Shown here: one piece after another, positions 4,528 to 33,247 of the stretch
How positions within the stretch are numbered: the stretch's first letter is position 1
How the letters are laid out: each line of letters opens with the position of its first letter
IMG/VR virus record: IMGVR_UViG_3300028145_000137
Coordinates: 1-46,304 of that record
Reading direction: 5' to 3' (one strand)
DNA: 46,304 nucleotides
Source of the DNA: a virus
Taxonomy: Duplodnaviria > Caudoviricetes
Notes under the pieces: model-generated
What the model was told of the DNA's origin: nothing
Seen by the model: the letters and a program-made list of their open reading frames with translations, nothing else
Databases searched by the model: none
Made by a program: the position numbers and the translations under genes

Positions 4528-5085
4528 CTAAGTATGCTTCCAAGTGTGCCGTTTAACAATATTGTTAATCGTGGACTTTGGGACAGCCAAAAAGTGCGCA
4601 ATATCACTTATGCGGCAATTTTGGCTGAAATAAGCCCGAATCTCCATGACACCTGTGTTTGTTAAATTCGCTCGCCCGTTTAAACTCCCAGGCCTTGCAC
4701 GCCTTCTATTCGATTCTGGGGTACACGACAATTTAACCTTAATAGAATGCAAATCCCCCTTACTTTCACGCCCCTTCAAAAGCATATCAGTTGTATTGTC
4801 TTGATTTGTACCTAACCATAAATGCTCTGGATTAACGCAATTGCCGTTATCACAAATATGTAGAACACAAATTCCGGCGGGTATTTCGGCCTTATGTAAT
4901 TGATAGGAAAGTCTTGATGCAATCACATTCTTTTTTGCGATCCTTACTACCCCGCGAATCCCGTCGAACGTGGCTGCCTTCCATGACCAGCAGGGTGTAA
5001 GTCCAGCTCGAATGACGGGTCCGTTCTTGTCGACTTTTGCGAGAAATCTTTCTAGCAACGTCCCGCGACACCCAAACTTTGCCAT
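4528..5085 (-). CDS. HNH homing endonuclease with a C-terminal HTH-like tail
   Basis: RFLAKVDK..CWSWK, ASRLSY, VLHICDNGNCVNPEHLWLGTNQDNTTDM. Markedly AT-rich. Confidence 0.9.
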   Translation of the reverse strand: MAKFGCRGTLLERFLAKVDKNGPVIRAGLTPCWSWKAATFDGIRGVVRIAKKNVIASRLSYQLHKAEIPAGICVLHICDNGNCVNPEHLWLGTNQDNTTDMLLKGRESKGDLHSIKVKLSCTPESNRRRARPGSLNGRANLTNTGVMEIRAYFSQNCRISDIAHFLAVPKSTINNIVKRHTWKHT

Positions 5086-6601: not shown

Positions 6602-7522
6602 CTACGGGCCTTCGCTGCCGAACAGGCCCAGAGGGTCCGATGCGCCGACAGAGAAGCGCTGCACGGCTGAGGTGAGGGCATTCTTGGTGCCGAAGTCATT
6701 GTCCTTCTCGATGACTGCTTTCATGCGGGTGAAGCGGCGGAGGCCGCGAGGTGCGTCGCTGCGCAGGAACCAGGAGTTGGGTGCGTCGAGGTAGTGGCAT
6801 TGCATGACACCCTCAGGGATGGTGTTTTGCATCTTGAGGACGTTGACTGCATTGTCGGGTGTGTCGTTTTGGTAGACTGATTCGAGGATGCGATTTGCAT
6901 TCCACCAGTTGTTGGGGTGGACGATCAGTTTCTTAGGCTTCAGGGCGATGATGAGGCCTCGGTCGTCTGTCGCCAGGCTCATTTGGGTTACGAGGTCTTC
7001 AAGGGCCGTTTCGCTCAAGTCGGCTGCGGAGGCGAGAATGTTACTGAATGTGCCGCCTGTGGTGTTGGGGTGGGCGGCGTTGAGAAGGGAGACACCGTCC
7101 GAGAGAGGAAAGGCTGCGTCGAAGGCGTTGTTGTAGACATCGGCGGCGACGATCTCTTCGGTGATTCGGTGGCTTCGAGCGAGGGCAGGGGTGCGGGTTT
7201 GGGTGACCTTCTCGTAGAGGTTATCCATCAACTCTTCCATCGTGACTGCGTAGCCGAGAGCATAGGTCACGTGGGTGTAGCGAACAACTTGACCTTGCTC
7301 TTCGGAGTCGTAGGTGATTTGCGCGCCCTGAGCCTTCACTGGCGCGAGGCCGAAGGAGGTGATTTTGACCTCTTCTTCATATGCCTTCTCGCTCGACTCT
7401 TCGTCGAACATCTGGGACCACTCGCGAGGGTAGTCGTTGTAGTCTCTGCCCCAGATTGCGATAATGCCGGGCCAGAGGAATTTGGGGTGGTTTCCGGTCG
7501 ATATGATACCTGCGATAGCCAT
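6602..7522 (-). CDS. Major capsid protein (HK97 fold, Mu gpT-like type)
   Basis: 306 aa; SEKAYEEE...FGLAPVK..G..ITYD, YTHVTYALGYAVTMEELMDNLY, DGVSLLNAAHP, KPKKLIVHP. Follows the scaffold and decoration genes. Confidence 0.9.
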   Translation of the reverse strand: MAIAGIISTGNHPKFLWPGIIAIWGRDYNDYPREWSQMFDEESSEKAYEEEVKITSFGLAPVKAQGAQITYDSEEQGQVVRYTHVTYALGYAVTMEELMDNLYEKVTQTRTPALARSHRITEEIVAADVYNNAFDAAFPLSDGVSLLNAAHPNTTGGTFSNILASAADLSETALEDLVTQMSLATDDRGLIIALKPKKLIVHPNNWWNANRILESVYQNDTPDNAVNVLKMQNTIPEGVMQCHYLDAPNSWFLRSDAPRGLRRFTRMKAVIEKDNDFGTKNALTSAVQRFSVGASDPLGLFGSEGP

Positions 7523-7540: not shown

Positions 7541-8119
7541 TTAGACGACTGCGAGCGTGCCGCCCATCAATTCGTGCTGGTTAATCATCACCAAGAGCTT
7601 CGTGTTGGCGGTCAGGTCGACATCGGCGCGCTGGACTTTGCCGAGGATTTTGAGCTGAAGGGTGGCCGTCACATCGGTGGTCGAGGCATCGAGTTCGGTG
7701 GTGGCGAGGGGGCTGATGCCGGTTGGGGCGCCGACAACGATGTTGGCGTTGGCGTTGAGGTCCGAAGTGGGGAATGCTCCCGCATTGTTGGCTTGGATTT
7801 CGAACACGACTTCTGGGTCGTCGCACACTAGGACATAGTAGTTGCGGGACTTGGAGGCAGGGATTGGGCCAGGGGGGCTGGATTGGTCCTGCGGGACTAC
7901 GGCTACGATGACGCCGCGGAGGATGTTTCCTGCTGCAGCGAGGGTGACAGCCGGAATGCCGTCTGCATCACCGCCTGCGAAGCTTTTGACTGCGCTCCCC
8001 ACTCCGTAGACTGCGTTGTCGGTGCTTAGGATCACGTACATGTTGACTGTCCCATTCCACGTCATGCCGTTGAGGTGCTTGACGGGAGCCAGGCCAACTG
8101 GTCGGTCTGCATTAGCCAT
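7541..8119 (-). CDS. Capsid decoration/cement protein
   Basis: MANADRPVGLAPV..., YVLVCDDPEVVFEIQ, C-terminal VMINQH; immediately upstream of the capsid gene. Confidence 0.65.
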   Translation of the reverse strand: MANADRPVGLAPVKHLNGMTWNGTVNMYVILSTDNAVYGVGSAVKSFAGGDADGIPAVTLAAAGNILRGVIVAVVPQDQSSPPGPIPASKSRNYYVLVCDDPEVVFEIQANNAGAFPTSDLNANANIVVGAPTGISPLATTELDASTTDVTATLQLKILGKVQRADVDLTANTKLLVMINQHELMGGTLAVV

Positions 8120-8130
8120 TTTAGGTCTCC

Positions 8131-8625
8131 TTACTTGGTTGAAATCTTGATCGAAGTGTGGTTGGGGACGTAGAAGTTTTTGTCAACCGCCGTCGTTTCA
8201 CCACGAAGAATACTCCTTAATCGGTTTTCACGCATCCCCTTGATGATGGCGCGGTTTTCGTCTTTGTGCTCCTTGCGGATTTTCATGAGGAAGGCTTTCT
8301 CGCCGATCTTCTTGAAGACGATGATGGAGATTCGGTCGCCTAGCTCCTTGTTGTGGGGGGTGACAGCTTCGGCGCCGACGGCGAGGGTGATTTCGCTGCG
8401 TGCGACGAATTCGTAGCCGCCTAGTTGGGCCTCTTCTATACGGCCGCCTACGTCGTTGATCCATGCGAGTTCCCAGCCGGGGATTTCGCCTAGGACTTGC
8501 ATCTTTTGGCGGGGCACGCCGAAGGGGATGCGGGCGCGGGGTTGGCGGTCGGGGACTCGATCCAGTTCGGCGCGAACTTGAGCGATTGGCTTTGTTGCTG
8601 CGTCTGTATCATTCTTGGTTGTCAT
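8131..8625 (-). CDS. Head-module protein (164 aa)
   Basis: True start probably MTTKND at 8625 (GGAGG RBS, ATGA overlap). IPGWELAWIND.GGRI...GGYEFV...AFLMKIRKE pattern. Confidence 0.7.
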   Translation of the reverse strand: MTTKNDTDAATKPIAQVRAELDRVPDRQPRARIPFGVPRQKMQVLGEIPGWELAWINDVGGRIEEAQLGGYEFVARSEITLAVGAEAVTPHNKELGDRISIIVFKKIGEKAFLMKIRKEHKDENRAIIKGMRENRLRSILRGETTAVDKNFYVPNHTSIKISTK

Positions 8626-8864
8626 AGCGGTAGTACCTCCCAATCCTCTGCCATCAGGTCTGTTTGAGATGCGAACCAAGGAATACGAGATCCCTTTGGA
8701 TAAGCAACATGACCTTCTGGATATTCGATATAAATGTAAGGGTGGGTCATTTTGCTGTGCGCATCTGGCCGTTGGAGTAGTAACCACATACCTTTACCAT
8801 TCCACCCCTCACGCGAAACGCGCTCCCCTCGTTTTAGTGCTTCTAGTGCTTGTCCGAAGTTCAT
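8622..8864 (-). CDS. tad2: DUF2829 / Tad2-family anti-defence nucleotide-sponge protein
   Basis: MNFGQALEALKRGERVSREGWNGKGMW...PYIY...PWFASQTDLMAEDW matches the DUF2829/Tad2 signature. Confidence 0.85.
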   Translation of the reverse strand: MNFGQALEALKRGERVSREGWNGKGMWLLLQRPDAHSKMTHPYIYIEYPEGHVAYPKGSRIPWFASQTDLMAEDWEVLPL

Positions 8865-8866
8865 AA

Positions 8867-9712
8867 TCACTCCCATTCGTAGGCGTCAACGTATGCTTCT
8901 TTGGTCATGAAACCGTTCTTGACCCAGCGGTCGCAGGCTGCTTTTGCGTCGGCGGGCAGGTCGGCGTAGGTTTTGCCGCGCTTTCCTTCGCCCCGAGCAC
9001 CGCCGCCTTCGTGGGGGGCGGATTTGCGGCGTGGATTCTCGAACTTGTCGGGGAATTTGGCGCGGACTTGCTTTGCGACTTCGTCCATGAAGGTGCGGCC
9101 GACGAGGTCCGTTTGATTGCGGCTTAGGCGAAGGGCGATGGCTTCGGCTGCGTCAAAGAGATCAGGCTCCCTTTCTTCATCGTACCAAGTGTTCTCTCGC
9201 TGCCATGCTCGGAATTCAGCTAGGTCGGGTGATGGGGGCTTGGTGGGCTTAGGTGATTCGGCCTTCTTGGCCTGCTCATCTTTGAGGGAGTCGATTCGGT
9301 CCTCAAGGTCGTCGACGAGTTCGAGGTTGTCCGCCTGGAGGGCTTCGCGGCGCTGGGCACGTAGCTCACCGATTGCGCGTTTGTATGCATTCTCACGCAT
9401 CTTAGCAAACTCGGTTGCGAACTCGCTTGTGGTGAGCTTCAACTCATTGAGTTCGGCCTTGGCTTCGTTGAGTTCGCGCGTGAGGCGTTCGTTGGTGCGT
9501 TTGAGGATGGGGCGGACCGCGTGGGCCTGCTTCATGAAGGCTTCGGCGTCGACCCAATCGGACTCGCGGCCCTTGAATTTGTCTTTGGGCTGCCAGCCTT
9601 CGCGCAGCGCTTCGGCTTCGATTTCGTGGTTGGAGTCGTCGGCTCTGCCAGCAGCGCCATCGCCCTCGACTTGGGGCTTCTCTACAGCTTGTTCGTTCTT
9701 TTCCATCATCAA
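8867..9712 (-). CDS. Capsid scaffolding protein
   Basis: EALREGWQPKDKFKG...WVDAEAF, a long coiled coil, W..EN.WY, and C-terminal KTYADLPADAK...TKEAYV. Located between portal and capsid. Confidence 0.75.
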   Translation of the reverse strand: MMMEKNEQAVEKPQVEGDGAAGRADDSNHEIEAEALREGWQPKDKFKGRESDWVDAEAFMKQAHAVRPILKRTNERLTRELNEAKAELNELKLTTSEFATEFAKMRENAYKRAIGELRAQRREALQADNLELVDDLEDRIDSLKDEQAKKAESPKPTKPPSPDLAEFRAWQRENTWYDEEREPDLFDAAEAIALRLSRNQTDLVGRTFMDEVAKQVRAKFPDKFENPRRKSAPHEGGGARGEGKRGKTYADLPADAKAACDRWVKNGFMTKEAYVDAYEWE

Positions 9713-9993
9713 TCTCCTTCGAGGATTTTCAAAATGTCATGGAATTTCATTCGTAGCTTAGCTAACTCTCTTTCTAGTTGAACACTCTCTATTTGGATGT
9801 ATTCATGCACAAGTTTGGTGGGGATTAGTATCGTTCGGTCGTCTTGAGCATCCGCTACACTAGCGGTGGCAAAGAACTTCTCCTCTGCTGCCATAGCTTG
9901 GAGGTCGAACAGCCTCTGCTCTTTCATACGGACCTTGGATGCGAACATACGAATCGTGTCGTAGGCTGCGAAGCTGTCAAGGAGCGTGCTCAT
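9709..9993 (-). CDS. Hypothetical protein
   Basis: 94 aa; ATGA-coupled to both neighbours. Confidence 0.55.
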   Translation of the reverse strand: MSTLLDSFAAYDTIRMFASKVRMKEQRLFDLQAMAAEEKFFATASVADAQDDRTILIPTKLVHEYIQIESVQLERELAKLRMKFHDILKILEGD

Positions 9994-10394
9994 GACTCAC
10001 CCCCAATCACAGCGATGACATCCAGATCGCTAATCACGCGGTATTTGATGCCGTTTCGCTTCCATAACTGACCAGCCCATTTCGCTATCATAACGTGGTC
10101 GCCAGGCTTGGCCCATGGACCACTTACATGTTGGTCGGCCCATGCGCTTGCACCCACTGCGATGATGGTGGCGCGGGTGCCGGACATTTCTTCGCGGTCG
10201 GCGACCTCTTCGGGGAGCACAATGCCGCTCTCAGTGGTGCGTTCGACTTCGTCCATTCGAACAATTACGCGGTGGCCAAGTGGGACCAAGCCTGCTTCAT
10301 TGTCTTTCGTTGACTTGAGACTTTCAGCTTCATACACATCGGCAAAAGTCATTGGCTTGTCGCCGTATACATCAAGCGCTTCATTCTCCTGCAT
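9990..10394 (-). CDS. groES: GroES-like co-chaperonin
   Basis: LVPLGHRVIVR...TTESGIVLP...IIAVG...KPGDHVMIAKWAG...YRVISDLDVIAVI is the Cpn10 pattern. Confidence 0.9.
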   Translation of the reverse strand: MQENEALDVYGDKPMTFADVYEAESLKSTKDNEAGLVPLGHRVIVRMDEVERTTESGIVLPEEVADREEMSGTRATIIAVGASAWADQHVSGPWAKPGDHVMIAKWAGQLWKRNGIKYRVISDLDVIAVIGGES

Positions 10395-16998: not shown

Positions 16999-18012
16999 AT
17001 GAGTGCAGCAATCGAAAGAATGGCGTATGTGGGGCAGAAACCTTGGCATGACTTCGGGACGCAACTGACACAAGGGGCAGACAAGGCTACATGGCGACGC
17101 GAAGCGGGGCTGGAATACGAGGTCCGTAGAGCTGTGGTGCAATACCAAAATGGGCAGTTGCACCAGTTCACGGGGCAAAATGTGCTTTATTGCTCGGATG
17201 ATGGGCGGGCGCTTAGCGTGGTGAGTGACGACTATCGAGAGATTCAGCCGGCAGAGTGTTTGGACTTCTTTGATGGCGTGGCGCAGGAACTTGGGTGCGA
17301 GATTGAGACGGCCGGGACGTTGAGCGGGCGCAAGAAGATTTGGGCGCTGGCCAAGACTGGGGAGAATGCGCGCATCGCGGGCACGGATGATGTGATTAAG
17401 GGGTATATCCTGTTTGCGACTTCCTACGATAAATCGATGTCTACGGTGGCGATGCACACAAGTGTCAGAGTGGTGTGCCAGAATACATTGGCATTGGCCA
17501 CACAGGCCTCAGGAGGGGTCCGGGTGCCACACAGCACAAAGTTCGATGCCCATGCAGCGAGAGTGAAATTGGGTCTTGTGCAGGACGTGTGGAAGGGTTT
17601 CGAGGAGGATTGTAATAGGCTGCATGAGTATAAGGTACAGAAAGCGAGTGAGGCGGCTAGTTTCTATGCGCGGGTGCTGTATGGAGATGAGGCTGATACG
17701 GAGCAGTTGTTGAAGGATAGGGATCGCAACCTTGTGGCAGTGATGGAAACGTTTCGTAGAGCGAAGGGGCAGGAACCGACAGCATGGGGATTGGTGAATG
17801 GTGCGACGGCGTATGTGGATCATGTGAAGGGGAGGACAAGAGAGACGGCGCTCAATGCTGCGTGGTTCGGGGAAGGGGCGCAAATGAAGCAGGAAGCGTG
17901 GAGGAGGGGGATCGCGCTTGTGGGAGGGGACAGGCAGCAAGTGGAAGTGAGGATGGATGCACCGGTTAATGTGGTGGCAGGGGATGAGTTCACAAGGTTG
18001 GTGCAGCGATAA
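16999..18012 (+). CDS. DUF932-family phage/plasmid protein
   Basis: MAYVGQKPWHDFG, VSDDYREIQP, ETAGTLSGRKKIWALA, TSVRVVCQNTL, TAWGLVNGATAYVDH, AWFGEG. Confidence 0.85.
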   Translation: MSAAIERMAYVGQKPWHDFGTQLTQGADKATWRREAGLEYEVRRAVVQYQNGQLHQFTGQNVLYCSDDGRALSVVSDDYREIQPAECLDFFDGVAQELGCEIETAGTLSGRKKIWALAKTGENARIAGTDDVIKGYILFATSYDKSMSTVAMHTSVRVVCQNTLALATQASGGVRVPHSTKFDAHAARVKLGLVQDVWKGFEEDCNRLHEYKVQKASEAASFYARVLYGDEADTEQLLKDRDRNLVAVMETFRRAKGQEPTAWGLVNGATAYVDHVKGRTRETALNAAWFGEGAQMKQEAWRRGIALVGGDRQQVEVRMDAPVNVVAGDEFTRLVQR

Positions 18013-18098
18013 GGTGGCTGTAGGCCGGTGGCGCGGGGCAGTCAGGAATGGTTGCCCCGTTGCTGTTGGATGATGAACGACACACAAAGGAGAATGAG

Positions 18099-18386
18099 AT
18101 GAAACACACACAAGGACCTTGGCGCACCGGAGATCGATTCAATACAGTGTTTGGGCCACCGAACGGGACTCCATCCCCACAGACGATAGCGACTGTGGCA
18201 AAGGGTAATGAAGCTAATGCCCGACTGATTGCGGCGGCGCCCGAACTGCTAGAGCAGTTCGAACAAGCGATGATTGTGTTGGAAGCTGTGAATAGTAAAG
18301 GTGCGCAGGATACGGCGTTCATCATGAAGTGCCGAGCAGTGATTGCTAAAGCTAAGGGGGGAGGAAAAGGACAGTTAAGTAGCTAA
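18099..18386 (+). CDS. Phage early protein (HTxGPW / ANARLIAAAPELL type)
   Basis: MKHTQGPW...ANARLIAAAPELLE; AAGGAG RBS. Confidence 0.75.
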   Translation: MKHTQGPWRTGDRFNTVFGPPNGTPSPQTIATVAKGNEANARLIAAAPELLEQFEQAMIVLEAVNSKGAQDTAFIMKCRAVIAKAKGGGKGQLSS

Positions 18387-18486
18387 GTAGAGTGCATATG
18401 GCCGGCAATCTGTGCGGAAAGTCACAAAAAAGAGTGAATTTTGCGCACTTTGCCGGCTTTGTATGTGGTTGATTATATTAACATAG

Positions 18487-18828
18487 TCAGATGATCAAAG
18501 TTCAGGTGATCATCCCTGACCCATTGAATGAGCATCTGAATGAGCATCTGAGCTAAGTCATTGATTATAAACAGAATATGTATAAAATATCTAACGTAAA
18601 AAGGTTCAGGTGATCATATTCTATGTGGTGAACACCTGACATTTGGCTTCATAGTGGGTGTTGCAGTGCGGGATAAGTGGGGGTGGGCCACTAAGGCATT
18701 TTAGAAGTAGGTGCTGTGGGGCTACGAAGTTGGAAAAAGCTCAGATGCTCATGATTTTGCGTTTTGGCTCAGATGATCATCTGAAAAAGCTATTGGGGCA
18801 TAGCAATATGAGGGGCAATGCGTTGATT
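18487..18828. repeat. Iteron-like repeat cluster TCAGRTGHTCA with IHF sites; candidate replication origin
   Basis: Forward copies at 18487, 18502, 18606, 18741 and 18769; reverse copies at 18529, 18541, 18629 and 18774. IHF consensus on the minus strand at 18554-18566 and 18816-18828. AT-rich core about 18555-18625. Confidence 0.7.
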
Positions 18829-18830
18829 TG

Positions 18831-19790
18831 TTACATGGTTGTTGAATCGGGGAGCACCCAAAGCCATTGACGGCCGATTTGTCTTTTTTCGACACCTAGA
18901 AGGTCGGCTGCACGACGCAGCGTCATGGGGGAGATGTTGTAGGCAACGCTGTTGTTTTGGATGTCGGTGGCGGCGCGGGGGCCACTGGAGAGGGACATAA
19001 GGAGGTAGGCTTTCGCGTCGTCTATCTTGAGACCTGCGTTGGTGAGGTCGCCGGCTGTAGAGTCGTTGTAGCCAGACCATACGAAACGGCCTGCGTGATC
19101 GTCATCAAGGATTTGGTAGGCGAAGGACTTGCCTAGACGGGCGCCATTGGACTTGATGTGCGCGACCCCACAGGAGATGCCATCGCCGGTCGAACCGGCT
19201 AGAAGGACGCTTCTGCAAGCTCCTGTGATGTCTATGCTGCCTTGACCGCGATATTTGATGTTGTCGTTGTTGGCCTTCGATAAGTGGCGAGCAATGACGA
19301 TTGCGCAGTTGTGCTTCTCGGCGATGTCCTTCAGTTCAGTGAGAACTTTGCGGGTGTGGTTGGCTTGGTTCATGTTGATGGTGGCGCCTAGGTAGCCGGC
19401 AAGAGGGTCGATTGTGACTAGGGTGGGTTTGAGATCGGTGACGGCGGCGCCGATGATGCGAGCGCCACGTGTGTCATAGCATGGAGCTGTGGCGAACATA
19501 TGGATGCGGTCAAGGTCGACGGGGGTGAATGCGCCGACGCGGGGGCGGATGGTGTCGGCGATGTCGTCTTCTGCGTTGGCGATGATGGTGGATTGGGGGC
19601 CGCAGGCGGCGGGGGTGCCGTCTGGTAGGAGGCCGATGCTAAGGTTGGCGGCGAGGGCGGCCAGGAGCCAGGATTTGCCGATGCCGGGGTCGCCTTCAAG
19701 GCATGTGACTTTGCCGAGTGCTATGTAGGGTTTCCAGAGCCAATTGATGTCGCGAGGAGCAATGTCGGAGAGACGAAGGATGCGGGACAT
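18831..19790 (-). CDS. RepA-like AAA_25 / SF4-type helicase with a short C-terminal winged-helix-like domain
   Basis: INWLWKPYIALGKVTCLEGDPGIGKS (Walker A), AEDD, LVTIDPL (Walker B), IARHLSK, GSIDITGACRSV. Likely start MSRIL at 19790; the frame is open to 19910. Confidence 0.85.
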   Translation of the reverse strand: MSRILRLSDIAPRDINWLWKPYIALGKVTCLEGDPGIGKSWLLAALAANLSIGLLPDGTPAACGPQSTIIANAEDDIADTIRPRVGAFTPVDLDRIHMFATAPCYDTRGARIIGAAVTDLKPTLVTIDPLAGYLGATINMNQANHTRKVLTELKDIAEKHNCAIVIARHLSKANNDNIKYRGQGSIDITGACRSVLLAGSTGDGISCGVAHIKSNGARLGKSFAYQILDDDHAGRFVWSGYNDSTAGDLTNAGLKIDDAKAYLLMSLSSGPRAATDIQNNSVAYNISPMTLRRAADLLGVEKRQIGRQWLWVLPDSTTM

Positions 19791-22420: not shown

Positions 22421-22696
22421 ATGGATGCGAAGACGAAGGAGATGGTGAACAAAGTGAATGCGCAGGCACAAGAGGAAGCGCGCCTGCAACAAACGGGAGT
22501 GTTGCAGAGGGTGCTTGAGGCGAAGTATGGGTATGAGGTGGCGGCGCAGTTGACGATGATTGCTGTTGCTGTTGTGAAGCTGTCGATGAAGACGAGTGAG
22601 GATGCACCTGCGATAGCACAGCATGTTGTCGCGCTTGTGCAGGCGTCATGGGATGAAGCAGGAGTGTTGATGGAGCGCCAGCCTAGGGAGGATTAA
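22421..22696 (+). CDS. Hypothetical protein
   Basis: 91 aa; starts MDAKT and contains ASWDEA, like the next ORF. Confidence 0.6.
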   Translation: MDAKTKEMVNKVNAQAQEEARLQQTGVLQRVLEAKYGYEVAAQLTMIAVAVVKLSMKTSEDAPAIAQHVVALVQASWDEAGVLMERQPRED

Positions 22697-22697
22697 G

Positions 22698-22967
22698 ATG
22701 GATGCGAAGACTGATGTGCGCTTGCGGGAGGTTATTGCATTGCAGGAGGAGATTGAGAAGAAGTATGGGGTGAAGTTCACCATGCGCCTCACGTTGCTGG
22801 CGGTGGATATTGTGACTGCGGCGCAGAGTGTGGGAGAGAGCACGATCCCGATCGCAGAGCTTGTGCATAAGTTGGTGCTGGCCTCGTGGGATGAGGAGAA
22901 GTGGCAGGCTGAGATAGCTGAGCGCAAGGCTGCGCAGGCGGACGCAGCGAAGGGAGAGAAAGGGTGA
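22698..22967 (+). CDS. Hypothetical protein, probable paralog of 22421-22696
   Basis: MDAKT start, KYG..., LT.(I/L)AV, ASWDE shared with the preceding ORF. Confidence 0.6.
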   Translation: MDAKTDVRLREVIALQEEIEKKYGVKFTMRLTLLAVDIVTAAQSVGESTIPIAELVHKLVLASWDEEKWQAEIAERKAAQADAAKGEKG

Positions 22968-24677: not shown

Positions 24678-24971
24678 ATGCCAACAGTAGATAAGCAGTT
24701 TGCGGACAGGCTTATAGCGGCGAATGGGTACTACGTGAAGGGGGATGAGGATAACAGTTTCGGGGATAATCCTCGTGTGACTCGCATCGTGGAGTACGCC
24801 AATGAGTGGGGTACTAAAGCATACGGGGTCACATATGAGGGTGAGGACCAAATGCGATACCTGAGCCCTACTGATTACACTCAGAATCCGACCATCTATT
24901 GGGAGTATAAAGGGGAGGATGATGTTGGGGAGGACGTCCTCCCCACTCGAACCCCGCGCGTACGCGATTAG
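24678..24971 (+). CDS. Hypothetical protein
   Basis: GGAGG RBS; DNPRVTRIVEYANEWG..AYG. Confidence 0.65.
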   Translation: MPTVDKQFADRLIAANGYYVKGDEDNSFGDNPRVTRIVEYANEWGTKAYGVTYEGEDQMRYLSPTDYTQNPTIYWEYKGEDDVGEDVLPTRTPRVRD

Positions 24972-27459: not shown

Positions 27460-27583
27460 CTATTACAGAAGCTGTAGCTCAGCCTGGGGGAGAGCGTGGT
27501 GAAGTGGAACCTCTGTAGGTGCACTACAAGTTTCCGTAAGTAGCCAAGGTCGCTGGTTCAAATCCAGCCAGCTTCTGTAATAG
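27460..27583 (+). ncRNA. tRNA-like RNA with extended acceptor stem and no canonical anticodon arm
   Basis: Acceptor GAAGCTG/CAGCTTC, TA, D arm GCTC-AGCCTGGGGGA-GAGC, variable AGGTC, T arm GCTGG-TTCAAAT-CCAGC. There are 50 nt instead of 17 in the anticodon arm. Intergenic. Confidence 0.75.
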
Positions 27584-28883: not shown

Positions 28884-30071
28884 ATGCCAACAAAAGTACC
28901 CGCCGAGGGGCCATCCAACGCCCGCATCATGATTGTCGGTGAAGCACCCGGTGCGCAGGAAGTGGAGCAGGGGCGCCCCTTCGTGGGTGCAAGCGGGCAA
29001 CTCCTCTTCAGCAATGGAAGTGGCGGGTTCGAGGCTGGAATGATGGCGAAGGCTGGCATACGGCGCGCAGAGTGCTTTGTCACAAATGTGTGCAAGTACC
29101 AGCCGCCTGGAAATGACATGGAGGTGTGGTTGACGGACAAGAAGAAGAATGCTGCGAGGGATGGGCTCCAACATTTTCGGCATGGGCGATGGTATAACGA
29201 TCTGGTGCAGGAAGGGCTCCATGAGCTGGAGGATGAGATTGAGCAAGTGCACCCGGAGGTCATTCTAGCGTTCGGCAATACTGCGCTGTGGGCGCTCACA
29301 GGAGAATGGAGTGTCTCGAAGTGGCGAGGGAGTGAGTTGTGGTATACGGGGGCGACGTATGGACCCGTACCCCTAATCCCGACATTGCACCCTGCATCGG
29401 TGCTGCGCCAGTATTCGGAGCGCGCCATCGTTGAACTGGATATTGCGAAGCGTGCTGTGGGGAAGATGGCTACGCCGGACGCGCGCAGAGAGCCGCAGTG
29501 GCGATTCCAGCACACACCCACATTCGAGGAGGCGTGCGCATGCTTAGAGCGCCTGACGGGCCTGGGGACTCCCCCATGGCTCTCCGTGGACATAGAGACG
29601 AAGTGGGAACGGATCGCATGCGTAGGCTTCGCGTGGAGTGATGTGGATGCGATCTGTATTCCGCTCATGCATGTGCGAGGGGCGAGGTGGTGGACTGTCG
29701 AAGAAGAGGCGCACATATGCATGCTCATGAAGAGGGTGCTGCTGCATCCACATATACGTGTGCTGGGCCAGAACATCAACTATGACAGGCAGTACATCAA
29801 GGCTGATGCATGCCTGGGAGTGGATGTGCCTGTCGCATTCGATACGGGCATTGCGCAGCACCTCCTCTATCCGGGCACACCCAAAGATCTTGCGCGCCTG
29901 GCGTCCATCTACTGTCCTTGGTATGTGTACTGGAAGGATGAGGGGCAGGGACTGGAGGACGATACAGATGAGGAACGTTGGTGGTTTTATAATTGCCGCG
30001 ATACAACAGCCACATACGCGGTGGCGATGTTGCAGATGGATGCGCTAAGGAGGGCTGGGCTATGGAAATGA
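28884..30071 (+). CDS. Uracil-DNA-glycosylase-like domain fused to a 3'-5' exonuclease (N-terminal half of a split family-A DNA polymerase)
   Basis: UDG family-4-like IMIVGEAPGAQE..QGRPFVGASG, VTNVCK, PTLHPA. ExoI SVDIET, ExoII QNINYD, ExoIII YNCRD. Confidence 0.9.
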   Translation: MPTKVPAEGPSNARIMIVGEAPGAQEVEQGRPFVGASGQLLFSNGSGGFEAGMMAKAGIRRAECFVTNVCKYQPPGNDMEVWLTDKKKNAARDGLQHFRHGRWYNDLVQEGLHELEDEIEQVHPEVILAFGNTALWALTGEWSVSKWRGSELWYTGATYGPVPLIPTLHPASVLRQYSERAIVELDIAKRAVGKMATPDARREPQWRFQHTPTFEEACACLERLTGLGTPPWLSVDIETKWERIACVGFAWSDVDAICIPLMHVRGARWWTVEEEAHICMLMKRVLLHPHIRVLGQNINYDRQYIKADACLGVDVPVAFDTGIAQHLLYPGTPKDLARLASIYCPWYVYWKDEGQGLEDDTDEERWWFYNCRDTTATYAVAMLQMDALRRAGLWK

Positions 30072-30316
30072 TGGATAAGGAGGAGCGCAATCGCGCACTT
30101 ACTGAGTTAGACACGGAGTGGGCACGCACTGTGATGCCTTACGCGAGTAGTGATTATGTTCGGTTGGTAGCCCTGCACAAAGCACGATACGAATGCGTAG
30201 ATATCGAAACGCGCCTGCGGCTCGCAAGCGGAGATTGGCTGCGATGTCGGGGCTTTAAACGGATCGGTGGTAAGGAATTGCTGCCTGTAGGTGTGCTGCC
30301 GGAGGATGTATGCTAA
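30062..30316 (+). CDS. Hypothetical protein between the polymerase halves
   Basis: AAGGAGG RBS; LVALHKARYE...SGDWL..RG. Confidence 0.65.
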   Translation: MEMMDKEERNRALTELDTEWARTVMPYASSDYVRLVALHKARYECVDIETRLRLASGDWLRCRGFKRIGGKELLPVGVLPEDVC

Positions 30317-30552
30317 TGATGGAGATGAGTGTGGATGCAAGGAAGCTGGGCGCCGAGTTCAAGCGGATTAGGTTGTCCTTGGGGCTGACATTGGATGTAG
30401 TCGCTACTCGGGTAGGCACCACCAAGAGTTCCATATGGGGATTGGAGCATGGGACCAACGATCCATCTATTACGCGGTGTTGCAAGGTCGCAAATGCTTT
30501 AGGGACCGATCTATGGCGGATTCTGCGAGATATGGAAGGCAGGAAAGAATGA
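30310..30552 (+). CDS. XRE/Cro-family HTH transcriptional regulator
   Basis: FKRIRLSLGLTLDVVATRVGTTKSSIWGLEHGTNDPSI...VANALG. Confidence 0.9.
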   Translation: MLMMEMSVDARKLGAEFKRIRLSLGLTLDVVATRVGTTKSSIWGLEHGTNDPSITRCCKVANALGTDLWRILRDMEGRKE

Positions 30553-30752
30553 ATATGCCGTCCATTCCAAAACTACGACTTATCTACTGCACTAAGTGTG
30601 GGTGGGTATCTTCGCACAATGCAGCACACGTAGGAATGGTGAATGAATGTCCGTGGTGCTGCAATTCATTGTCGTTTGCCGAGTGCGAATGTGAGTTGCT
30701 CACGCTTGTCGACGAGCTGGGCTTTGACATCCGTTTTGTGGAGAAGATGTGA
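30549..30752 (+). CDS. Small Zn-ribbon protein
   Basis: CTKCG...CPWC; ATGA and GTGA coupling. Confidence 0.55.
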   Translation: MNMPSIPKLRLIYCTKCGWVSSHNAAHVGMVNECPWCCNSLSFAECECELLTLVDELGFDIRFVEKM

Positions 30753-32095
30753 TGGACCAATCTCACCCCAGCGAGCCGTTCCCCTATCCTAGCGGGTCCG
30801 TAGATGCGCGTCAACCCATCCCTGCAAGCCTGTTCGACATCCAACTCCGCGTCGCCGATGTCGCCTACAACATGATGAAGCGCGGTGTGCAGACCGATCG
30901 GAAGCGTGTGCAGGCCCTGAAGCGCGAAGTCGCAGCAATGATGGAGGAACGCCGACGCATCGTCGAAGAGGTACTAGGCCGCCCCCTGGAGTGCAACAAA
31001 GCCGGCCACCTTGCGTTCTTCAACTCCAACCCGCAGATGCATTCCTTCTTCACAGCACGCGGCATGAAGGGGAAGGCAAAGCGCGGCGCGAAGAAGCTCT
31101 CGTATGATGACGACGCACTTCACACATTGGGCAAGAAGGACCCTGCGCTTGCGTCCTTCTGCAATGCTGTCATCGAGTACCGAAGTCTTGGCGACGCGCT
31201 CTCCACATTCCTGCTTGCAGAATGCGAGCCCGGCGGCCGCCTACGCACCTCCTTCAATACTGCCTCAGCAGAAACCTTCCGCTGGACATCCTCCACCAAC
31301 CCTTTCTATCGTGGCTGCAACATCCAGAATGTTGGAGGCGCAGTCCATAAGACCACAGCCTGCCCGCTGCCCAACTATCGCCAAGCCATTATCCCGGATG
31401 AGGGAATGATGCTACTGGAGCCTGATCTCAAAGGAGCCGACGCGCAAGTCGTCGCATGGGACAGTGGCGACGCAGTCTTGAAGGATATGTGCAAGCAAGG
31501 GGTCAAGATCGCAGCCGAGCGCGCGAAGATGATCTTCAATGGGGATGCAGGGCCGGACGGCCGACGTGAGCCCTACTATACGAACGCGAAGTCGGCAGGG
31601 CATGGCTGGACATACGGAGGCAAGGCGCGCACCCTGGCCGCCGTGTGCGGCATCACGCAGCATGAGATGGATAAGGTACTGAAGAAGCTCGCGGGCATTC
31701 ATCCAGGCATCCCAAGGTGGCATCGCCGCGTTGAGGGGCAACTTGAAGCCACCCGCACCATCACGAATGCGTTCGGTTATCGGGTCGTCTACTTCGGACG
31801 GGTTGCGGACTCCCTCACGAAGGCGCTTGCGTGGATAGGACAAGGGACAGTCGCATGCGTCATCAATCGAGTGCTGATTGCAATGGAGGATGATGTGCCG
31901 GCAGTGGAGCTACTCATCAACAATCATGATTCGTTCGTGGGGCAGGTAAGGCCTGATGAGTGGGCGCGCGTGAAGCCCCTTGTGCGCGGCGTATACACAA
32001 GCGTCGTGGTGCCATACGCGGAGCCGCTGATAATCCCACCTGCACTCAAAGTATCGACGAAGTCGTGGGGCGATATGCAAGAGGAGGGGTGGTGA
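30749..32095 (+). CDS. polA: Family-A DNA polymerase, polymerase domain only
   Basis: MMKRGV, FNSNPQ, ETFRWTS, NIQN, motif A DLKGADAQVVA, motif B AKSAGHGWTYG, motif C NHDS. Confidence 0.9.
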   Translation: MMDQSHPSEPFPYPSGSVDARQPIPASLFDIQLRVADVAYNMMKRGVQTDRKRVQALKREVAAMMEERRRIVEEVLGRPLECNKAGHLAFFNSNPQMHSFFTARGMKGKAKRGAKKLSYDDDALHTLGKKDPALASFCNAVIEYRSLGDALSTFLLAECEPGGRLRTSFNTASAETFRWTSSTNPFYRGCNIQNVGGAVHKTTACPLPNYRQAIIPDEGMMLLEPDLKGADAQVVAWDSGDAVLKDMCKQGVKIAAERAKMIFNGDAGPDGRREPYYTNAKSAGHGWTYGGKARTLAAVCGITQHEMDKVLKKLAGIHPGIPRWHRRVEGQLEATRTITNAFGYRVVYFGRVADSLTKALAWIGQGTVACVINRVLIAMEDDVPAVELLINNHDSFVGQVRPDEWARVKPLVRGVYTSVVVPYAEPLIIPPALKVSTKSWGDMQEEGW

Positions 32096-32520: not shown

Positions 32521-32726
32521 AGGACACATGTGTATATGGGCATGGCGAGGAGACAGACCGCCGATGCGAGGCGCTTGCTTCTGTCGTGCGCGACATGCAG
32601 GGCTTCATGCCAATACGTTTTAGGGAGCGCGAAGGGTCGAATGGTCAAGCATGGTGGAAATTGCGGACGAAGAAGATTGTGGGGCGTGAGCGGGCTGATG
32701 GAGACACGGGGGCGGAGGATCTGTAG
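32517..32726 (+). CDS. Hypothetical protein
   Basis: GGAG RBS; ATGA coupling. Confidence 0.45.
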   Translation: MKDTCVYGHGEETDRRCEALASVVRDMQGFMPIRFREREGSNGQAWWKLRTKKIVGRERADGDTGAEDL

Positions 32727-32987
32727 ATGAAAACAAAAGACACACCAGGATTTGGGCTAGCGCCTGTAAAGCAGCAGGGTGCTACGGTATCCTACACAGG
32801 CAGCGCAGACAGTACGGAACCACTCGATCTGGCTGATCGCCACAACGAAGGCGATATCGAAATTATCGATGGCGAGCTTTGTGTGTGGTACGACAGTGGA
32901 GCGACGTACATCAGTATCCCACTCGACCGTGTGAAGGAACTCCTACAATCCCACGCCAACGAACCAACCGTTGATGAAGGTGAATAG
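32727..32987 (+). CDS. Small acidic protein with an N-terminal copy of a major-capsid segment
   Basis: GGAGG RBS; FGLAPVKQQGATVSY versus capsid FGLAPVKAQGAQITY. Confidence 0.65.
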   Translation: MKTKDTPGFGLAPVKQQGATVSYTGSADSTEPLDLADRHNEGDIEIIDGELCVWYDSGATYISIPLDRVKELLQSHANEPTVDEGE

Positions 32988-32989
32988 GC

Positions 32990-33247
32990 ATGAAACTCGG
33001 CCAAGAAATCGAACGCGCTATACGCTCAACAATCGATGCAGCAGAGGCGCGTATTCGAGCGCGTGTCTATCGCGCACGGTTGCGACTATATCTGGGGGTG
33101 CGTGACAAATGCTGCGGCCAGTGCCGACAAGAGATAACCATGCAGATGGATGAAGAAATTCTGAAGCATGGGGAGCGCACCGGCGAGTGGCCTACGTGGA
33201 AGCAGATAGAGGGGCTGAAGCGGTTAAATGGGGATGGGGACCTCTAG
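32990..33247 (+). CDS. Hypothetical protein, last plus-strand gene
   Basis: 85 aa; its stop overlaps the convergent endolysin stop. Confidence 0.5.
   Translation: MKLGQEIERAIRSTIDAAEARIRARVYRARLRLYLGVRDKCCGQCRQEITMQMDEEILKHGERTGEWPTWKQIEGLKRLNGDGDL

Follow-up and report, generated by a model that had tools for sequence, protein, structure and literature searches.

A capsid E-loop-tip copy on a phage ORFan protein recurs on unrelated small phage proteins

A small acidic protein encoded in the replication arm of a soil phage was found to carry, close to its N-terminus, a copy of the E-loop tip of the HK97-fold major capsid protein, and copies of the same loop tip were found on further small phage proteins with unrelated bodies. 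Judged from these sequences, the copied loop tip is likely a reusable docking peptide for the capsid protein. An earlier note on this DNA had proposed a selected mimic of the capsid; the recurrence of the motif, in five other protein types, and purifying selection in one family could be established, whereas the sensor-decoy mechanism and the tracking of the phage's own capsid could not.

Results and Discussion

The phage and its major capsid protein

The window, by which we mean the whole stretch of DNA analysed (46,304 nucleotides), is a 46.3-kb phage record that is 99% complete, with the structural arm on the minus strand and the replication arm on the plus strand. The phage is a distant soil relative of the HTVC023P-type and CRP-901-type podophages, with which it has the capsid family and a gene set of GroES, portal, and polA in common, whereas in the GenBank phage set neither the 86-aa protein nor family B, both described below, had a significant match. 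The major capsid protein (Table 1) belongs to the same family as the HTVC023P-type pelagiphage and CRP-901 capsids, with 37–40% identity in GenBank matches, and 5243 homologs of it were found. Its AlphaFold model (mean pLDDT 85.6) matched the HK97, T5, and GTA capsids in Foldseek searches with E values of 1e-11 to 1e-12, indicating the HK97 fold, and the residues of the E-loop tip sit in the extended hairpin that follows the capsid N-arm. The close relatives G001 and G002 cover the structural arm only, so that the 86-aa locus lies outside their sequence.

Several other features of the genomes were noted. DNA polymerase A is split over 28884–32095 (+), with a UDG and exonuclease gene (28884–30071), an HTH gene (30310–30552), and the polymerase domain (30749–32095). 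The GroES co-chaperonin gene adjoins the portal gene (9990–10394, −), two HNH endonuclease genes lie within the structural arm (1508–1996 and 4528–5085, −), a tRNA-like match lies at 27468–27576 (+), and two tandem paralogous small genes without a family, 39% identical (E 8e-12), lie at 22421–22967 (+). The capsid gene of another genome, G029 (17191–18943, +), is apparently split, its first 16 codons lying ~800 nt ahead of the remainder, which suggests an intron or insertion.

Table 1. Positions of the capsid features, the loop-tip copies and their carriers (window coordinates unless a locus or genome is named)
Feature	Position	Strand	Basis or context
Major capsid protein, 306 aa, HK97 fold	6602..7522	−	Profile, homology and fold searches
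Capsid E-loop tip, residues 56–74, between predicted strands 48–55 and 75–83	7301..7357	−	AlphaFold model, pLDDT about 88–91
N-terminal PVGLAPVK of decoration-like gene (7541–8119), upstream of capsid	8078..8101	−	Context, separate from the copy
Tad2-like gene (PF11195)	8622..8876	−	Pfam match 8631–8864, 87 bits, above Pfam cut-off
GGAGG, Shine-Dalgarno-like, 8 nt ahead of ATG	32714..32718	+	Sequence
86-aa acidic ORF, next-to-last replication-arm gene	32727..32987	+	
Capsid E-loop-tip copy, residues P7–T24, matching capsid positions 55–72	32745..32798	+	DNA profile and alignments
119-aa ORFan carrier (G003)	L035:882-1241	−	
L164 carrier, twin-arginine-like leader (by eye), no NCBIfam match	L237:1522-1857 (G009)	−	
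L176, 83-aa carrier			Between terminase and portal; contig 3.9 kb, its assembly without capsid match
L229, new 90-aa acidic ORF			Between terminase and portal
Family B, 53–62 aa Cys-rich motif carriers			Body DPD..W.C.C..C..Y..WK
N-arm-like copies	G031:34626-34892; G033:32820-33095; G036:33089-33364; G038:44988-45299; G049:8578-8877		

The 86-aa ORF and its capsid-loop copy

The 86-aa protein is acidic, with a pI of 4.3 and 17 Asp/Glu versus 6 Lys/Arg, and is predicted to consist of a disordered N-terminal half (1–41) followed by a small three-strand-plus-helix body (43–77), in a model with an overall pLDDT of 53. The ORF abuts its neighbouring genes, and its codon usage is the best of the six frames, with an equally high score in 3 of 890 wrong-frame windows; together with the Shine-Dalgarno-like sequence ahead of its start, it looks like a real gene. 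Two Logan assemblies, both possibly the source of this DNA, contain the stretch unchanged and without joints.

The peptides that the earlier note had paired were confirmed. Bases 32751–32795 (+) encode FGLAPVKQQGATVSY and bases 7310–7354 (−) encode FGLAPVKAQGAQITY, residues 57–71 of the capsid protein, with 11 of 15 residues identical; the count of synonymous differences was also correct, 7 of the 11 identical residues being specified by other codons (29/45 nt identical). The copy is slightly longer than this 15-mer (Table 1), and its ends match those of the loop tip, a structural element flanked by two strands. The assignment of the segment to the HK97 E-loop, which the note had considered probable, is upheld by the AlphaFold model and Foldseek, which place it at the tip between strands 48–55 and 75–83. 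A capsid origin was likewise borne out, in that a DNA profile built from 114 segments of related capsids had 32745–32795 as its sole match outside the capsid gene (E 2e-9). When a capsid profile was run over 35 replication-arm genes, the 86-aa ORF scored 46 bits and the next gene 19 bits.

The match also lies well beyond what shuffling produced, 11/15 never being reached. In 3000 shuffles of the 86-aa protein against the capsid, none gave 10/15 and the best ungapped score was 48, compared with 60 observed; no cross-gene 15-mer with at least 10 identities appeared in any of 20 shuffles of the whole proteome (73 genes), and the copy is the only cross-gene 11/15 match among the 73 plausible genes. 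The expected number of 11/15 matches per genome was 0.006 by analytic calculation, and the Karlin–Altschul E values were 0.003 for capsid versus proteome and 0.07 for all versus all. It is thus highly improbable that the resemblance arose by chance or that the ORF is non-coding, a reading now largely refuted: although an all-versus-all expectation of 0.006–0.07 per genome is not negligible across very many windows, it is opposed by the E value against the capsid DNA profile, by the codon usage, by the recurrence of the motif in other small proteins, and by the residues unlike the own capsid, which are the Gly and Val of the family consensus.

Other capsid-like or repeated material was searched for around the copy. 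A second capsid segment in the 86-aa body was not supported, 117 of 300 shuffles being equally good, and a frameshifted capsid relic downstream of the copy, suggested by a likeness seen by eye in the +1 frame, was likewise not supported by the DNA profile, which revealed no additional capsid relic around the copy in any frame. An origin from a repeat, spacer, or RNA element was also dropped, with no repeat pair flanking the copy and only a tRNA found in an Rfam scan, and no RNA holder is listed for the stretch. The likeness of another gene (24678–24971, +) to capsid residues 245–280 (E 0.027) was lost on a broad capsid profile and is likely due to chance. The gene next to the 86-aa ORF (32990–33247, +) agrees at 7 of 12 positions (TGEWPTW) with a conserved W..W stretch in the head-closure protein of the same phage (430–441; E 0.10), which is possibly a second structural-peptide copy or a chance match.

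Origin of the copy

The earlier note had expected the copy to follow the phage's own capsid. This did not prove to be the case, as 92 of 215 capsids match P7–T24 better than the own capsid does; the identity is 11/18 with the own capsid, 15/18 with the best foreign capsid, and at most 12/18 with the 12 capsids nearest on the tree. Among 121 capsids, the consensus is Gly before the motif (88%) and Val at position 69 (60%), which are the residues carried by the 86-aa ORF; the own capsid has Ser and Ile there. A similar relation was observed in 5 of the 6 other carriers with a known capsid, in which the own loop is GFSAAPVKNEG-like and the copy is GFGLAPIKxEG. The exception is G013, in which the copy is near its own capsid (12/18), with only 9 of 215 capsids better.

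The synonymous differences had been taken as a sign that the peptide is under selection in the 86-aa ORF. This argument did not hold, since they correspond to ordinary divergence between capsids: when other capsid genes are compared with the own one, a mean of 0.55 of the identical residues have different synonymous codons (n = 106), and 28% of the genes reach 0.64 or more. Because capture from a foreign capsid yields an equal pattern without selection, a value of 7/11 does not prove that this ORF is under selection. The comparisons suggest that the copy was likely captured from another phage's capsid gene. A donor capsid gene with near-identical DNA was not found, the best having 39/54 nt; because the third positions of the copy are saturated against every capsid compared (at most 8/18 identical), none of these is a recent donor. 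A metagenome scan for the copy returned 5 loci, namely its own contig (L042) and 4 capsids.

The homolog search that the earlier note had proposed as a check returned no relatives of the 86-aa protein, but only the protein itself. Among 5.8 billion proteins (lengths 47–151 only), one of 2 candidates was confirmed and was the protein itself, and the 4 matches among 1.84 billion representatives were itself and three repeat-rich proteins. There were no homologs in IMG/VR and no Atlas match, and GenBank phages gave 9 records, all with E ≥ 0.2. Pfam, PHROG, and NCBIfam gave no match, and the fold, queried with the low-confidence model, had no BFVD match at E ≤ 0.001.

These results bear on a neutral explanation, by which a young ORFan gene would have acquired 54 nt of a foreign capsid gene by recombination and the copy would serve no purpose in the 86-aa protein, family B having kept its copy for reasons of its own. 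The lack of homologs, the capsid-like level of synonymous divergence, and the better match of distant capsids all agree with such a capture, whereas the saturated third positions and the missing capsid relics around the copy do not. We regard it as rather unlikely, taking into account also the evidence on other carriers that follows.

Recurrence on unrelated small proteins

In a first degenerate scan, all 13 loci were capsids, and in a further one 19 of 20 were; the remaining locus (L035, in G003) is a 119-aa ORF that begins MTPGFGLAPIKREG and is, like the 86-aa ORF, a singleton. A larger scan gave at least 128 loci, 119 in IMG/VR (47 of 64 parts covered) and 9 in GTDB, comprising 108 capsids and 20 non-capsids. 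The latter were 16 members (53–56 aa) of a Cys-rich family, which we call family B, the G003 protein, and the carriers L176, L164, and L180. L180, on a bacterial contig, was dropped as a probable chance match, about 2.4 chance matches being expected in GTDB. We also ran a scan in which capsids were removed by their invariant glutamate and the GFSAAP loop type was also allowed. This returned 11 loci and no capsid: 10 of family B, 2 of them divergent, and L229. The chance matches expected in the viral scans numbered 0.02–1.2 for an assumed collection size. As the collection scans were built on the E-loop motif, the preference for this loop over other capsid segments is partly a matter of ascertainment.

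Including the 86-aa ORF, there are six body types that do not align with one another past the motif (blastp E > 0.2 between types). All copies of the motif begin no more than 2 residues from the same glycine, and in typical members of 5 of the 6 types its start is at residue 11 or earlier; in the sixth, L164, two-thirds of the signal-like leader precedes it. The motif is thus an N-terminal tag common to unrelated bodies. This pattern speaks against neutral capture, because independent bodies hold the copy in frame, intact, and near the N-terminus from the same glycine onward, and because 11 of 11 matches of the capsid-excluding scan were such ORFs and none was out of frame.

Carriers with a capsid gene on the contig have the same capsid family, as found for G003, G013, and 4 of 5 family-B records tested. 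In G007, G009, G010, G011, and G012, which are incomplete genomes (G007 and G012 about 25% complete), no full capsid was found; G011, a family-B member that is 89% complete, had no match to the window's capsid and its contig ends in tail genes, so that it is probably truncated. A second copy was present in 0 of 40 genomes selected by their capsid (1.42 Mb, many partial, mostly of the FGLAP type), which sets an upper bound of about 7%. Because none of these genomes carries one, the motif copy is not a core function, and this rarity is also what a neutral capture would predict.

Selection on the motif in family B

The body of family B does not align with that of the 86-aa protein, and the two have the motif alone in common. 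When family B was searched by its body, using an alignment of 7 members from which the motif had been removed, 34 loci (25 distinct) were found, and [FW]G.AP[IL]K.E[GD] was kept in 34 of 34, in its strict form in 20. The pooled pairwise pN/pS was 0.19 over 11 motif codons and 0.20 over 35 body codons (24 distinct sequences, uncorrected for relatedness and saturation; the L217/L218 sequence was excluded owing to an insertion). The invariant Gly, Pro, Lys, and Gly of the family-B motif are those invariant in capsids, and its fourth position varies to Lys or Asp. The full retention and the low pN/pS indicate that the capsid peptide has been maintained within the protein in one family at least. 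The own loops of family-B phages are (S/A)GFSAAPVKNEG; since they differ in type, the copies of this family do not track the own capsid.

Possible function as a sensor decoy

According to the sensor-decoy idea of the earlier note, the 86-aa protein would be made before the capsid and, without causing activation, occupy a defence protein with which the host recognises the E-loop tip. The convergence of the copies on one consensus regardless of the own capsid would suit such a role, as would the position of most carriers in the early arm, yet a decoy that protects its own phage should track the own capsid, and the copies mostly do not. With short-motif sensors such as Lit, which detects Gol, a free peptide would more likely trigger than block, and this counts against the idea. 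The 86-aa protein had no sequence, profile, or fold match to a known anti-defence family (Pfam, PHROG, and NCBIfam; fold E ≤ 0.001). Precedents can be cited on its behalf, in that DSAD1 blocks a sensor of a structural protein by competition (PMC11087589) and Lit and CapRel are described as detecting short motifs (PMC12803255). The capsid sensors described in the same and in another source are less favourable: Avs7 binds the whole fold, for the most part through its A-domain contacts (PMC12803255), and Sau-Thoeris responds to the hexamer (PMC11312562), so that what is recognised there is a fold or hexamer and not a free E-loop tip. The mechanism is thus not supported, and we consider it unlikely.

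The earlier note had also named a Tad2 sponge as a second layer against the same defence. The Tad2-like gene was confirmed (Table 1) and may be counted in favour of a decoy, but its link to the copy is co-occurrence only. It is located within the head operon, where one gene separates it from the decoration-like gene further downstream.

Other copied capsid segments and the decoration-like protein

Some carriers hold more than the loop tip. The G003 protein consists of two capsid pieces end to end, the E-loop tip and then C-terminal residues 286–300 (0/300 shuffles), and in L164 the leader is followed by copies of the E-loop tip and of spine helix 107–135 (0/300 shuffles for the helix). In five genomes, a peptide like the capsid N-arm (ITTGNxPKAL) stands in frame before basic proteins of two unrelated kinds, and its codons differ synonymously from those of the own capsid gene; singly, these matches are weak (E 5e-4 to 0.01 before correction for 292 windows). 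By HK97 anatomy, residues 286–300, the spine helix, and the N-arm may also be subunit-contact elements. Copies of other segments fit both a wider mimicry and a plain reshuffling of capsid DNA, and the two-piece mosaics, which show capsid DNA reshuffled into small ORFs, are accordingly a point for neutral capture.

The decoration-like protein encoded upstream of the capsid gene has an N-terminal PVGLAPVK, which shares six identical residues with the E-loop tip of the capsid. An N-terminal motif of the P[FY]GL[KR]P[VI] or FGLxP[VI] type occurs in the decoration-like proteins of 29 of 47 genomes, and in 30 of 39 the best E-loop-tip match falls within residues 1–45, although it is rarely the best capsid window overall. 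Such a motif is compatible with a shared groove on the capsid.

These proteins also raise the possibility of a packaging or display tag, by which unrelated passengers would be targeted to the own head in the manner of the T4 capsid targeting sequence (CTS). One N-terminal tag on unrelated bodies is the design of the CTS (PMC9026906), and a similar motif on the decoration-like protein, the position of two carriers in the head operon, and the basic, possibly packaged proteins behind the N-arm copies are in line with this. It nevertheless seems quite improbable, because in the finished shell the neighbouring subunits would, by HK97 anatomy, fill the E-loop site, the copy is mostly unlike the own capsid, and the 86-aa protein is acidic.

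Proposed role in head assembly

We tentatively prefer the explanation that the copy serves as a docking peptide for the capsid protein and in this way modulates or poisons head assembly, which on the sequence evidence is quite possible. In the HK97 capsid, the E- and P-loops of adjoining monomers are described as holding the hexamer together (PMC11312562). The 18-residue copy, presented on an N-terminus predicted to be disordered, would bind the E-loop site of unassembled capsid subunits. Because the partner of the E-loop tip in the shell is the neighbouring subunit, a free copy could occupy this site only on monomers or growing edges. Once bound, it may cap, slow, or divert head assembly, with the acidic body as a bulky or charged passenger, and it could be of most use when a relative infects the same cell and offers a loop site to which the copy is better suited than to that of the carrier. 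In a wider and rather doubtful form of this proposal, HTVC023P-type phages would repeatedly graft the E-loop tip onto unrelated N-termini as a dominant-negative weapon against procapsid assembly of FGLAP-type relatives in co-infected cells.

Some observations are at odds with docking. The 86-aa ORF is a singleton, in which the motif could be unselected; a poison would also hit the phage's own assembly, given a capsid of the FGLAP type, and in G013 too the copy is near the own capsid; the fourth motif position varies in family B; and L176 and L229 are encoded between terminase and portal, outside the early arm. A complex prediction of the capsid with residues 1–40 gave a score of 0.00 twice, with controls that were not folded, and was weighed neither way.

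If the motif docks on the capsid, it would explain a class of phage ORFans as modular constructs of a copied structural-protein peptide and a variable body, would mark an attackable interface in HK97 assembly, and would provide a directly testable reagent of 13–18 residues, in a capsid family to which the highly abundant HTVC023P-type phages belong. Should it be a sensor decoy instead, the peptide would be a ready bait for capsid-sensing defence, and even a copy that is neutral in the 86-aa ORF shows that new small genes are built from capsid fragments. In the part of the literature covered, we found no account of capsid-loop or capsid-peptide copies on unrelated small phage proteins.

Comparison with known systems

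The capsid-size redirector CpmB of SaPIs is likewise a small protein that acts on the capsid assembly of another element by a copied head-assembly motif, but it is encoded by a satellite, copies the scaffold and not the capsid, and forms one family, whereas the present copies occur on several bodies in lytic-type phages. DSAD1 of SPbeta-like phages, directed against DSR2, resembles the present case as a small accessory protein that replaces a virion structural protein at its binding site; it was shown to compete with the tail tube for a known sensor, whereas here a literal linear copy of a capsid loop, known from sequence, stands on six unrelated bodies (PMC11087589). The CTS of T4 IPI–III is similar as an N-terminal tag of ~10 residues common to otherwise divergent small proteins, but the CTS is a propeptide removed by cleavage, with the prohead core as its target, and is not presented in that source as copying the capsid protein, whereas here an outer inter-subunit loop is copied (PMC9026906). 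Tab is a small phage-encoded blocker of the assembly of competing phages, but it is expressed from a prophage and affects the tail by way of the tape measure protein; an anti-Tab exists, and the abstract mentions no sequence copy (PMC10884400). The capsid-loop-copy proteins belong to none of these four systems. Taken together, they fall under a kind already known, in which accessory proteins of phages mimic structural proteins, and the copy read from these sequences is real, capsid-derived, recurrent, and selected in a sister family.
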